The translations under genes and the position numbers were made by a program. From sequence record MT446412.1: a stretch of 64,000 nucleotides of DNA; one strand, written 5' to 3'. Source of the stretch: Escherichia virus TH41. Every line of letters starts with the position of its first letter. Position 1 is the first letter of the stretch. The notes beneath the pieces were generated by a model. That model had not been told where the DNA came from, made no database searches, and saw nothing but the letters and a program-made list of their open reading frames with translations. Positions 7,058-46,310 of this stretch are shown piece by piece.

Positions 7058-7317
7058 TGTGTCCTGCTATTGAATTACCTGAAGGTGTTGCGGTAATAGT
7101 ATCATACAAACATACGTATGCTAATGGAATTCGCCGAGCTCATAAAATTAGTCAAGGTTACTATTTACAAAGGACTTTAAATTATTTCATTTCAATGGGA
7201 TATGAATTCAGAATCTATCCTATGTGTACTAAAACCAAGTACACTAAAATCGATGCTTGGGAAGCTTGGGCGGAAGGCATGACATTAGACGAATTCCTGG
7301 ACTACTTAAATGATTAA
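7054..7317 (+). CDS. Hypothetical protein (87 aa)
   Basis: ORF track; ATGA overlap. Confidence 0.45.
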   Translation: MMCPAIELPEGVAVIVSYKHTYANGIRRAHKISQGYYLQRTLNYFISMGYEFRIYPMCTKTKYTKIDAWEAWAEGMTLDEFLDYLND

Positions 7318-7576
7318 AATAAAACTCTCTAATTACGATAAAAACTTGGAAATGATTACTATGAAAGAAGAACTCCTGAATGATGTTCGCTTTACGGGTT
7401 ATGCAGTTCAATTTAATGGTGATGGGGTTCTCCAGATTGAAGGTGACCACTTTATTATTGAATATGAATTCCACCAATATTGGTTGTATGCTAAAGATGA
7501 AGTTGGTGGGATTGATTATATTGACCAGTTTGATAAGCTTGATGATGTTTTAGAAGCTGCTCAATTGGTGTACTGA
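7310..7576 (+). CDS. Hypothetical protein (88 aa)
   Basis: ORF track; start overlaps previous stop. Confidence 0.45.
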   Translation: MIKIKLSNYDKNLEMITMKEELLNDVRFTGYAVQFNGDGVLQIEGDHFIIEYEFHQYWLYAKDEVGGIDYIDQFDKLDDVLEAAQLVY

Positions 7577-7842
7577 TGCACATCAATCATACAATGATAT
7601 CTATCCAGGACCTGGGAACGTTTTGGGTGGATGAATTCATGAAAATAACATTCTTCCCACACGCAGAAGGGTATGGCTCTTGGGAGTCTCATATCGGCAT
7701 GTTGAATGAAGGACAATACCGCAACGAGCATGACCGTCTGATGGAATTCATTAGTGATGCCGAGGTTATCCCTTATATTGACATCCATGAATTTAAGGCA
7801 ATTATGGAGAAGGTCTTCCAGGCTTACTGTTTACTTCGCTAA
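7576..7842 (+). CDS. Hypothetical protein (88 aa)
   Basis: ORF track; TGATG overlap. Confidence 0.45.
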   Translation: MHINHTMISIQDLGTFWVDEFMKITFFPHAEGYGSWESHIGMLNEGQYRNEHDRLMEFISDAEVIPYIDIHEFKAIMEKVFQAYCLLR

Positions 7843-32400: not shown

Positions 32401-32429
32401 GTGTACACACCCAATGGATGGTGTATAAT
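32401..32429 (+). promoter_or_regulatory. Early promoter GTGTAC-N17-TATAAT
   Basis: Preceded by AAAAGTA; followed by GAATCCATACTGAGTT block; ATG 32477. Confidence 0.6.
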
Positions 32430-35797: not shown

Positions 35798-35803
35798 AAA
35801 GTA

Positions 35804-35833
35804 GTGTACAAGGCCAATGGAAAGAGACATAAT
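35804..35833 (+). promoter_or_regulatory. Early promoter GTGTAC-N18-CATAAT
   Basis: Preceded by AAAAAGTA; leader CATCTCATCAACTACTGATGAGGATAACAAA; ATG 35865. Confidence 0.6.
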
Positions 35834-35864
35834 CATCTCATCAACTACTGATGAGGATAACAAA

Positions 35865-36122
35865 ATGATTACTTCTTTTGAAATTGGCCAACAATATGAA
35901 ATGTCTGCTTTTCAAGCTGCTGAAGCAGGTCTGACTGAAGCGTTTGAATGTGCATTTACAAATATTCGTGGTAAAATCTTTACTGTCAATAAAATTGCGG
36001 TATATGATAAAGAAACAGACATGAACAAAGGCATCTACTTGAACGTGTCAAACGCAAAAGGCCGTCGTGAAATTATGGTTGTACAACCTAACCAACTGGC
36101 GATGTTCAATAAGGTTACATAA
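35865..36122 (+). CDS. Hypothetical protein (85 aa)
   Basis: ATG after conserved leader; in frame with track ORF 35817..36122. Confidence 0.5.
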   Translation: MITSFEIGQQYEMSAFQAAEAGLTEAFECAFTNIRGKIFTVNKIAVYDKETDMNKGIYLNVSNAKGRREIMVVQPNQLAMFNKVT

Positions 36123-36877
36123 TGAAACCAGAATTTATTGACTTTGATGTTGTAAGCATGTATGTTCGCCCAATTAAACCATTAAAACTTGAGAAACAAA
36201 ATATGACTATTGAAATTAACAAAACTTATCAACTGATTGAACCTATTATTCAAAACGCAGCTATGGTTTCTGGGTATAATACTCTGACTGATGCTTTAGG
36301 CGAAGGTGAATTTATTGTTGAAACTTTTGTAAAAAGTAACTGGTTTGATAAAGCATATATTTTGCATGCACGTCGCCTTGATACAAATGAAGTAGAAAAA
36401 ATTATGGTTTATGAAGCTGAGATTGAACTCTTCAAAGAAGTTGAAGAAACTCCCATCAAAGTTGGTAAAACCTATCAGCTTATTGAAGATGCCAGTCAGT
36501 TTGGAAAGACTGTTGCAATGCATGCCGGGTGGCGGGTACTGAAAGGTATTTTTGGATTTGCTCCATTTACCGTTAAAACAGTTAAGTACCACAATCACCA
36601 AAGCATCTTTGAATTTACTGCGGTCAATGAATCAGGTGACAATCTTGAAGCTATCCTTTATCCGCGTGAATCTGTACTGCTGGAAGAAGTTAGCGAGCTT
36701 GGCGACCCTATTGACTTGCTATGTAAACCAGTTCAAATCAAACGCCCATTTAACAGTTCCATTTGTGGTTGGGTAACAGACCAGTGGATTGAAGATGGTG
36801 TTGAACTCCTGAACGTTGTTCATTGTGGTAGTTTTACTGTTGTACCACGTTCCATGGTTGTTGAAATTTTTAATTAA
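36122..36877 (+). CDS. Hypothetical protein (251 aa), C-terminal domain paralogous to next ORF
   Basis: C-terminus GWVTDQWIEDGVELLNVVHCGSFTVVPRSMVVE vs GYITDQWVEEGVKLYNIVFLGTFKVVPESFIVE. Confidence 0.55.
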   Translation: MKPEFIDFDVVSMYVRPIKPLKLEKQNMTIEINKTYQLIEPIIQNAAMVSGYNTLTDALGEGEFIVETFVKSNWFDKAYILHARRLDTNEVEKIMVYEAEIELFKEVEETPIKVGKTYQLIEDASQFGKTVAMHAGWRVLKGIFGFAPFTVKTVKYHNHQSIFEFTAVNESGDNLEAILYPRESVLLEEVSELGDPIDLLCKPVQIKRPFNSSICGWVTDQWIEDGVELLNVVHCGSFTVVPRSMVVEIFN

Positions 36878-36881
36878 ATTT

Positions 36882-36911
36882 GTGTACAAACTCGTGGGGC
36901 CAGAGTATAAT
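36882..36911 (+). promoter_or_regulatory. Early promoter GTGTAC-N18-TATAAT with -10 inside inverted repeat GTGGGGCC/GGTCCCAC
   Basis: Read directly; ATG 36954. Confidence 0.6.
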
Positions 36912-36953
36912 GGTCCCACTGGAGAATAAACTTATTAATCAAGAGAGAAAATT

Positions 36954-37445
36954 ATGAAAGTTGAAGCTGGTGATATTGTACGCGTTTCTAAAGAATCTCG
37001 TTCTAAAGCTGCTGGTCGTTTTGTTGAGGTTGTGGGTCTTCGCACTAATTTAGTAGGTGGAATTAAAGAAGTTAAAGTGCGTATTATTCCTAAAAATGGC
37101 CAGACTGAAACTCAATTGGCTTATGTACATCCTAAATTCCTGGAATCAACTGAATTTACTGGATATATCGCTCCTGTGGTTGAAGAAGTTGAAACCATTG
37201 ACCAGTCTCATGTTGGGGTTGATTTTAAATGGAAATTAGGTAAAGGTGTCTTTTTCGTTTCACCTAAACCGTTTGAATACAATTGCAAGTATGGTCCGAC
37301 TTATGAAACCACTAGCATGTCTGGTTATATCACAGACCAGTGGGTTGAAGAAGGGGTTAAACTGTATAATATTGTGTTCCTTGGAACCTTTAAGGTTGTT
37401 CCTGAAAGTTTTATCGTTGAGTATGCTGATATTCATTTTGCCTAA
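36954..37445 (+). CDS. Hypothetical protein (163 aa); size and position resemble T4 motB
   Basis: ORF track; paralogous C-terminus with 36122..36877. Confidence 0.55.
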   Translation: MKVEAGDIVRVSKESRSKAAGRFVEVVGLRTNLVGGIKEVKVRIIPKNGQTETQLAYVHPKFLESTEFTGYIAPVVEEVETIDQSHVGVDFKWKLGKGVFFVSPKPFEYNCKYGPTYETTSMSGYITDQWVEEGVKLYNIVFLGTFKVVPESFIVEYADIHFA

Positions 37446-37495
37446 ATTATAAAATAATGATAGGGTAATTTTGCCCTATCAATGAGGAGAATATT

Positions 37496-37726
37496 ATGTT
37501 TAATGAAGATTGCGTGACCACTTCCCTGACCGCTGAAGAGTTCTGGGAAACCGCTGAAAGTGATAAAGTGATTGTTAAGAAAAACATCAATGAATTTCTT
37601 TGCACCACTGATATCATTTATGTGTATGCGTATGAAGGCGCGGAATTACCTAGCTATGCACTGTTCCGTGAAGAATCAGAAGATGGCACAGATTTTTGGA
37701 AGGAGACTTATCATGTTGAAATTTGA
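37496..37726 (+). CDS. Hypothetical protein (76 aa)
   Basis: ATG preceded by GAGGAG. Confidence 0.5.
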   Translation: MFNEDCVTTSLTAEEFWETAESDKVIVKKNINEFLCTTDIIYVYAYEGAELPSYALFREESEDGTDFWKETYHVEI

Positions 37727-38087
37727 AACTGATAAATGGTATTATTTTAAAGATAATGTTGCTGAAAGCAGATTTCGTTTGTTATGCTCTGATAATGATA
37801 ATATAGCTGATGCTATAATCAATGGTGAAGGATTTAGACCAGTCGGAATTGAAGGTGGTGATGTATATCGGATAGAATTTTCGACCGGTGGAATAGAGAG
37901 AATATTCATAAAGGAAGATGAGCGTCGTTTCTTTGAAGAAGAAAAAGATGACGATACTGAAGACGAATGCGAAGACGCTGATGAAGCATTTGAACCAAGC
38001 GAATTCCCTTTGACTAAAATCACCATTTCTAATAACTCTGAAGCCTGGACCGTTTACCAGATGTTGAAAGCACACTTTAAGGAATAA
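37713..38087 (+). CDS. Hypothetical acidic protein (124 aa)
   Basis: ATG preceded by AAGGAG; track start 37572 is upstream read-through. Confidence 0.5.
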   Translation: MLKFETDKWYYFKDNVAESRFRLLCSDNDNIADAIINGEGFRPVGIEGGDVYRIEFSTGGIERIFIKEDERRFFEEEKDDDTEDECEDADEAFEPSEFPLTKITISNNSEAWTVYQMLKAHFKE

Positions 38088-38539: not shown

Positions 38540-38938
38540 ATGTTTAAAATTGGAAAGAGTTATTGCATTAAAGATTTAGATGGCTTCCTTAAACATGTCG
38601 GTATGCCTGGTAGCATTTTGAACCAACAAGGAACCTCTATCATTGATTTGGTTACTACCAAAGAGTTTTCAGTCACTAAGATGGAAGCAAATGTTGTTAC
38701 GGAATTTAGTACTATAGATGGAACTGGATTTTCTTTCCATAGTCGTAATGGAACCGGTCTTATTTTTGGTGATGAATTTAAATATTTTGAAGAAGTCCCG
38801 GAATGTGATTCTGAAATAACCGAACAGGAATCAAAAGAGGATATCGTTGTTACCGGCGGCGATGTTATTATTACGGTTAAAACTGAAGCCGGCCGTCTAC
38901 AAGCTATTAAAATGTTAGAGCAGCTTCGATTCAAATAA
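38540..38938 (+). CDS. Hypothetical protein (132 aa)
   Basis: ATG preceded by GAGGA; track start 38363 is in-frame read-through. Confidence 0.5.
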   Translation: MFKIGKSYCIKDLDGFLKHVGMPGSILNQQGTSIIDLVTTKEFSVTKMEANVVTEFSTIDGTGFSFHSRNGTGLIFGDEFKYFEEVPECDSEITEQESKEDIVVTGGDVIITVKTEAGRLQAIKMLEQLRFK

Positions 38939-46280: not shown

Positions 46281-46310
46281 GTGTACATCAGTATGGAGTC
46301 TATGTATAAT
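46281..46310 (+). promoter_or_regulatory. Early promoter GTGTAC-N18-TATAAT
   Basis: Preceded by AAAAAGTA; followed by GATTCCATACTGAGTTACC; ATG 46345. Confidence 0.6.

Follow-up and report, generated by a model that had tools for sequence, protein, structure and literature searches.

The DNA considered here is a stretch of 64,000 nucleotides from Escherichia virus TH41 (MT446412.1), referred to below as the window. On its plus strand it carries two adjacent genes whose products, 251 and 163 amino acids long, resemble each other at their C-termini, and the ORF list contains both reading frames as an earlier sequence-only reading had described them (Table 1). Across positions 35800-37500, Escherichia phage UPEC01 matches the DNA at 98.6% identity and Shigella phage SP18 (Gaprivervirus, Tevenvirinae) at 96.1%; judged by these identities, the window is from a Gaprivervirus, an SP18/UPEC01-like T-even phage. 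All of the genes around the pair lie on the plus strand, in the order dda, small ORF, dexA, 101-aa ORF, motB.1, motB, cef, goF, followed past goF by 39.2, 39.1, a 132-aa ORF and gene 39. In T4 the order is dexA, motB.2, motB.1, motB, cef, and the setting of motB in the window, flanked by motB.1 and cef within the region from dexA to gene 39, agrees with both SP18 and T4.

The sequence-only reading had placed the pair in the region where T4 encodes MotB, and the smaller gene proves to be motB itself. Its product matches the Pfam family PF17613 (motB; gathering cutoff 25 bits) over nearly its entire length (residues 1-162 on profile 1-161/162, 173.6 bits, E 3.7e-51), as well as phrog_1671 (E 3.9e-67), and it is 52.7% identical to T4 MotB (E 9e-57). 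By these profile matches and its synteny, the smaller protein is MotB. The 251-aa protein matches PF17613 only at profile positions 118-154 (residues 211-247, 36.3 bits, E 6.7e-9), which indicates that it has a domain in common with MotB but is itself no MotB; both the Pfam and the PHROG profiles of MotB reach it in its last ~40 residues only. Over residues 2-251 it belongs to phrog_2333 (E 1.9e-77), and the SP18 ortholog of its gene carries the annotation motB.1. By family assignment, the 251-aa protein is thus MotB.1, the known neighbour of MotB. The ATG of motB.1 shares bases with the stop codon of the ORF in front of it (TAATG). That 101-aa ORF (35817-36122) probably starts at Met17 (35865): its match to phrog_17795 is confined to residues 17-100, and its first ATG is overlapped by a promoter-like TGTACA-17-CATAAT (35805-35833).

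Table 1. Positions in the window of the two genes, their predicted protein domains, and the elements preceding motB
Feature	Position	Strand	Description
motB.1 (251 aa)	36122..36877	+	leader, barrel A, barrel B and shared C-terminal domain (CTD)
MotB.1 leader, residues 1-27	36122..36202	+	conserved motif IDFDVvSMYv.PiKPL
MotB.1 barrel A, residues 28-110	36203..36451	+	predicted small beta-barrel, LSm/SH3-like
MotB.1 barrel B, residues 111-194	36452..36703	+	predicted small beta-barrel, tandem homolog of A
MotB.1 CTD, residues 195-251	36704..36874	+	shared core = residues 199-251 (36716-36874)
motB early-type promoter	36882..36911	+	GTGTAC(A) -35 region 36882-36888; TATAAT -10 36906-36911
Stem-loop GTGGGGCC / GGTCCCAC	36894..36919	+	-10 hexamer inside loop; PeSL-type cassette
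motB (163 aa)	36954..37445	+	assigned by PF17613, phrog_1671 and identity to T4 MotB
MotB N-terminal barrel, residues 1-64	36954..37145	+	predicted, basic, KOW/SH3-like
MotB CTD, residues 86-163	37209..37442	+	shared core = residues 94-159 (37233-37430)

The two proteins carry the same CTD. In a single BLASTP comparison, residues 211-248 of the 251-aa protein align without gaps to residues 119-156 of the 163-aa protein, with 20/38 residues identical (53%) and 30/38 positive (79%), and the match is significant on its own (E 4e-13). Comparison of the two family alignments by hhalign (A3, 41 sequences; A2, 43 sequences) extends it to 53 columns, joining residues 199-251 to residues 94-159, where the 163-aa protein has an insertion of 11 residues (probability 98.65%, E 4.8e-16). 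The similarity first noticed is therefore real, but the figure of about 35 residues given for it was too small, since it spans the whole CTD, some 53-66 residues. Eight columns are invariant across both families (D, W, E, G, L, N, V and G), falling in the motif (T/S)DQW.E.G..L.N.V. The insertion is a lysine-rich hairpin, FKWKLGKG…KPFEY.CKYG, which is specific to MotB and missing from MotB.1 (alignment A4). The two versions of the domain, the MotB-type (…GVKLYNIVFLG…) with the hairpin and the MotB.1-type (…GVELLNVVHAG…) without it, are kept separately across the aligned members, which stem from several phage genera. The MotB.1-type follows the pattern DPxDLL…CGWVTDQWIEDGVELLNVVH…, and the CTD of the window's MotB.1 aligns with 40 family members, with many residues invariant.

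AF2 models give both CTDs five strands, at residues 203-206, 214-224, 227-234, 237-242 and 246-248 of MotB.1 and at residues 98-110, 116-132, 135-142, 145-150 and 154-157 of MotB. The first hairpin is longer in the MotB model than in that of MotB.1, and the MotB domain is modelled with block-mean pLDDT values of 84-95 over residues 91-160. When the CTD profile and MotB.1 were searched against the PDB by sequence profile, nothing meaningful was found (best E 0.56 and 0.041).

MotB as a whole is modelled with a mean pLDDT of 80.3 as an N-terminal barrel of four to five strands, a disordered acidic linker (residues 68-84) and the five-strand CTD. Its N-terminal domain (NTD) has a net charge of +5 and a pI of 9.99, and the linker a net charge of -5. 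Calculated for the shared core within MotB (residues 119-163), the pI is 4.35, while the MotB.1 CTD has a net charge of -3 and a pI of 4.65; from composition, the shared core is acidic, unlike the basic KOW-like NTD of MotB. T4 MotB is an abundant early protein which binds both modified and unmodified DNA tightly and non-specifically, co-purifies with H-NS and StpA only when DNA is present, and shifts the H-NS footprint, its overproduction de-repressing part of the H-NS regulon (PMC6070864; PMC7827196). By orthology, the MotB of the window should have the same DNA binding and the same effect on H-NS. The two proteins occupy the same position, after dexA and motB.1 and before cef, and have the same predicted arrangement of a KOW-like NTD and a beta CTD. 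About half of their residues differ, however, and the DNA binding and H-NS effects have been shown for T4 MotB only.

MotB.1 is built differently in front of its CTD. Its model (mean pLDDT 74.9) begins with a leader of pLDDT <50 (residues 1-27) in which I6, D7, F8, D9, S12, Y14, K19, P20 and L21 are nearly invariant. Two barrels follow, both with the same order of one strand, a long helix, three strands, a short helix and a last strand, after which comes the five-strand CTD; in barrel A the main elements are a strand at residues 35-38, a helix at 46-59, and strands at 63-71, 78-85, 91-97 and 104-106. In this predicted fold, the N-terminal part of MotB.1 shows the bent five-stranded antiparallel sheet of the LSm/SH3-like type. 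The two barrels are 32% identical to each other, and their local alignment (score 75, z 11.6) was matched by 0/2000 shuffles. At the DNA level, the only recurrence between them is the stretch coding for KTYQLIE, repeated at a spacing of 246 nt. These tandem barrels account for the length of the 251-aa protein, which exceeds that of most MotB.1 proteins. Neither barrel has detectable similarity to the NTD of MotB (z -0.6 for A and -1.2 for B in local alignments), so that the sequence-only reading's description of the N-terminal regions as unrelated stands at the sequence level; it fails in fold, both being predicted small beta-barrels.

Each of the window's barrels has closer relatives among single-barrel proteins: MotB.1 proteins of 171-180 aa have a barrel with 55-65% identity to barrel A, and the 165-aa protein P0094 has one with 54% identity to barrel B. 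Barrel B was also considered as the counterpart of the NTD of T4-type MotB.1, to which BLAST matches it at 36.5% over 115 aa, but the linker and the first part of the CTD contribute most of that score, and the candidate was rejected. When only the barrels are compared, the T4 type (P0244, P0253) is about 23% identical to A and to B alike, and thus represents a third subtype. Barrel A has a weak match to the GoF-like phrog_622 (E 0.005) and barrel B none, with pairwise z values between -1.0 and 2.5 for the barrels against the GoF NTDs of the window or of T4. The window itself contains two GoF-like genes, at 37713-38087 and 38540-38938: the 124-aa goF ortholog (phrog_622, E 1.3e-29; 33% identical to T4 GoF) and a 132-aa GoF-like paralog (phrog_622, E 1.2e-17; goF phrog_13003, E 8e-8). 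With these two genes and the two MotB.1 barrels, the number of GoF/MotB.1/Frd.2-type barrels encoded within 3 kb may reach four. Whole MotB.1 is strongly acidic (net charge -13, pI 4.9), and for this reason it probably lacks non-specific DNA binding of the MotB kind.

The same modules are found in other combinations elsewhere. A census made with module HMMs on 268 retrieved proteins and the window's own proteins counted 128 of the form KOW+CTD, 103 of leader+A+CTD, nine with an extra domain in front of leader+A+CTD, eight of the window type leader+A+B+CTD (window protein included), three of KOW+leader+CTD and a single leader+B+CTD. The A+B form, at >=90% identity to the window's MotB.1, occurs in 28 phage records. 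Among the small proteins examined, the CTD stands behind at least six different N-terminal arrangements. The family is nonetheless tiny: searched against 1.84 billion representative proteins, the CTD profile retrieves 35 at E <=0.001, of which about six are probably spurious. These are long tail-fibre-like proteins (361-862 aa), judged to match via a repeated short motif only; in P0259, the one examined, this motif is SGYATEQWVE. In the small CTD proteins examined (101-251 aa), the domain lies at the C-terminus or no more than about 15 residues from it. In the KOW+leader+CTD hybrids (P0247, P0255 and P0257), the leader motif (D.DvaSMY…P) directly precedes the CTD, as it also does in the barrel+leader+CTD protein P0253. 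Since the leader adjoins the CTD in these hybrids, the barrels of the window type appear to have been inserted between the two, and the MotB.1 leader may pack against the CTD. For the additional N-terminal domain in MotB.1 forms of ~248 aa, an origin by fusion of the 101-aa upstream ORF found no support (BLASTP E 0.78, no PHROG match).

motB is separated from motB.1 by a gap of 76 nt which contains a promoter-like sequence, TGTACA-17-TATAAT (36883-36911, 10/12 matches). It is kept in SP18, T4_ev240 and T4 (GTTTAC...TATAAT). The pattern GT[GT]TAC-N16-18-TA[TC]AAT occurs nine times on the plus strand of the window and never on the minus strand, with 0.085 expected per strand, and all nine sites have an ATG within ~60 nt downstream; a search of the window for GTTTAC…TATAAT with a fixed 17-nt spacer missed the motB promoter and performed no better than chance. 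The conservation of the site and the strand bias of the pattern lend good in silico support to what had been proposed from the letters, that the second gene has an early promoter of its own.

The -10 hexamer of this promoter lies in the loop of a stem-loop whose predicted RNA fold has a free energy of -18.0 kcal/mol (z -4.4) and whose stem shows compensatory differences between phages (window GGGGCC/GGTCCC, SP18 GGGGTC/GACCCC, T4 GGGACC/GGTCCC). Cassettes of this kind recur on the plus strand: the copies at 36882, 47498 and 47910 agree almost completely over about 45 nt and that at 46281 is similar, all four with strong stems (-15 to -18 kcal/mol, z -4.4 to -6.9), and another at 32401, again with the -10 hexamer in the loop, has a weaker stem of 6 bp (-5.3 kcal/mol, z -0.6). 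A GGAG follows the stem-loop at 36921-36924, near the predicted transcript start, and the cassettes at 46281, 46868 and 47910 likewise have one downstream; GGAG is the motif at which the T4 endoribonuclease RegB cleaves early mRNAs. By its sequence features, the element before motB is a member of the PeSLs, the promoter-early stem-loops of T4-type phages, for which a part in the modular shuffling of genes has been proposed (PMC2839356; PMC4122927). It has their early sigma70-type promoter, their stem-loop with one G-rich and one C-rich arm, their intergenic position in a hyperplastic region and their repeated occurrence (Arbiol 2010; Comeau 2014), although its -35 element is GTGTAC(A) and not TTTACW as in the PeSLs of the PST/T4 pair. 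On the other side of motB, between its stop codon and the ribosome-binding site of cef (GAGGAG), an 8-bp stem-loop, TGATAGGG…CCCTATCA (37458-37481), is scored as terminator-like on the minus strand only.

The relationship between the two proteins is already in the literature. Patterson-West et al. (2021) sorted MotB homologs into categories, one resembling MotB across both domains, and described the relation of one CTD to different NTDs (PMC7827196). Their Table S4 includes SP18 gp011 (MotB) and gp012, together with the VR20, VR7, VR25 and VR26 orthologs, and gp012 and its orthologs match 35% of the MotB query. The finding for this gene pair is thus real but is a rediscovery of a relation published in 2021. 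For MotB itself, the same study predicts a KOW-like NTD and an OB-fold CTD. Kim et al. (2025) recognised in the MotB.1 NTD a five-stranded barrel of the LSm-like/SH3-like kind, as in GoF and Frd.2, and report that T4 deleted for motB.1 has no laboratory phenotype and that MotB.1 has no effect in an RNA reporter assay (PMC12152347); given these two results, an RNA role of the N-terminal barrels is only putative. The window's protein shares with T4-type MotB.1 (phrog_2333; "Category 2-4" of Patterson-West et al.) the location of its gene directly upstream of motB, the MotB.1-type CTD and an LSm/SH3-like barrel. It departs from the Tequatrovirus type, and from the GoF/MotB.1/Frd.2 LSm-like family of Kim et al., in that the barrel is duplicated, A and B together giving 251 aa, whereas single-barrel MotB.1 proteins measure about 180 aa with A, 165 aa with B and 144 aa with the T4-type barrel. 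The tandem barrels, the acidic core, the tiny size of the CTD family and the PeSL setting of motB do not figure in the excerpts of the 2021 and 2025 papers on which this comparison draws. To the published picture, the present analysis adds only a little: a MotB.1 with two barrels, a shared core that is acidic, and a mosaic of domains.

One further observation concerns the T4 reference itself. There, motB.1 (NC_000866.4, about 7142-7650; L003 2643-3151, minus strand) encodes 119 aa ending …GWVTDQWIGRWR at the stop codon, and the +1 frame continues …EDGVELLNVVHAGEYSVVPRSAVVAILN up to two consecutive stops. An early stop with an open +1 frame points to a one-base frameshift that removes most of the shared CTD from the reference protein, which is cut short inside the shared motif, leaving a 149-nt "intergenic" gap. 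An intact 144-aa protein of the T4 type exists (P0244), and another T4 record aligns unbroken (H47). The published experiments used the 13.8-kDa form of MotB.1.

We consider it probable that the pair represents motB.1 and motB, early genes of a T-even phage of the Gaprivervirus type, and that the two are old paralogs which have a common C-terminal beta-domain and different N-terminal small-barrel modules; that one CTD sits on different N-terminal modules, as the sequence-only reading had it, is borne out by BLASTP and by the profile-profile comparison. MotB would then consist of a basic KOW-like barrel, an acidic linker and a CTD with an extra lysine-rich hairpin, and MotB.1 of a leader, two homologous LSm/SH3-like barrels and a CTD core devoid of the hairpin. 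Transcription of motB would start from its own early promoter in the PeSL-type cassette and be supplemented by read-through from upstream. That BLASTP aligns only 38 residues could suggest a chance match over a short hydrophobic stretch, an idea to which we give practically no credence: the two E values, the cross-matches of the Pfam and PHROG profiles and the eight invariant columns rule it out. A recent exchange between the two neighbours in this phage, by gene conversion or recombination, in place of an old duplication with conserved function, would be conceivable in a family where domain-level recombination does occur, as in the hybrids joining KOW and leader to a MotB.1-type CTD, and beside a PeSL cassette, a proposed recombination substrate (PMC4122927). 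Nevertheless it is very improbable, given that the two CTD types are separately conserved in members from several genera, that the window's own two CTDs are only 53% identical, and that no DNA repeat joining the two CTD-coding stretches was found in the window DNA.

That the shared domain serves in binding or targeting, as the sequence-only reading suggested, is plausible. From its charge and conservation, the acidic core could be a module for protein docking or self-association, bringing nucleic-acid-binding barrels of different kinds to a common partner or complex, a proposal to which we give somewhat less than an even chance. DNA binding by MotB would in that case reside in the KOW barrel, perhaps with help from the hairpin. 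Patterson-West et al. assigned the MotB CTD to a cold-shock-like OB fold, possibly DNA-binding (PMC7827196), and the domain might accordingly bind nucleic acid in both proteins, with the N-terminal barrels modulating it or adding specificity. We find this rather unlikely, because the conserved core is acidic (pI 4.35-4.65), with D or E at three of the eight invariant positions, because the lysine-rich hairpin is confined to MotB, MotB.1 lacking it and having a net charge of -13, and because the basic part of MotB is its KOW NTD (pI about 10); the argument from charge is indirect, however, and the CTD of T4 MotB is near neutral (pI 7.7). Building on the docking proposal, the CTD might bring together MotB, with its DNA-binding KOW barrel, and MotB.1, with its one to two LSm-like and possibly RNA-binding barrels, either at one host target or by direct heterodimerisation, while T-even phages shuffle the N-terminal barrels. 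This last step is speculative, and we hold it to be distinctly improbable.

For annotation, the practical value is that the pair can be labelled motB.1 and motB and not hypothetical paralogs; otherwise this identification is of little significance. For those who study the early host-takeover proteins of T4, three modest points are useful. The frameshift in the T4 reference MotB.1 could explain the negative results obtained with that protein. An acidic CTD core without the basic hairpin of MotB would offer a testable split of labour between the domains. The MotB.1 proteins emerge as mosaics, each with one or two barrels, drawn from at least three subtypes, on a constant CTD; and if T-even phages do shuffle these N-terminal barrels, then the two-barrel MotB.1 of Gaprivervirus and the hybrids of KOW, leader and CTD would be snapshots of barrel swapping.
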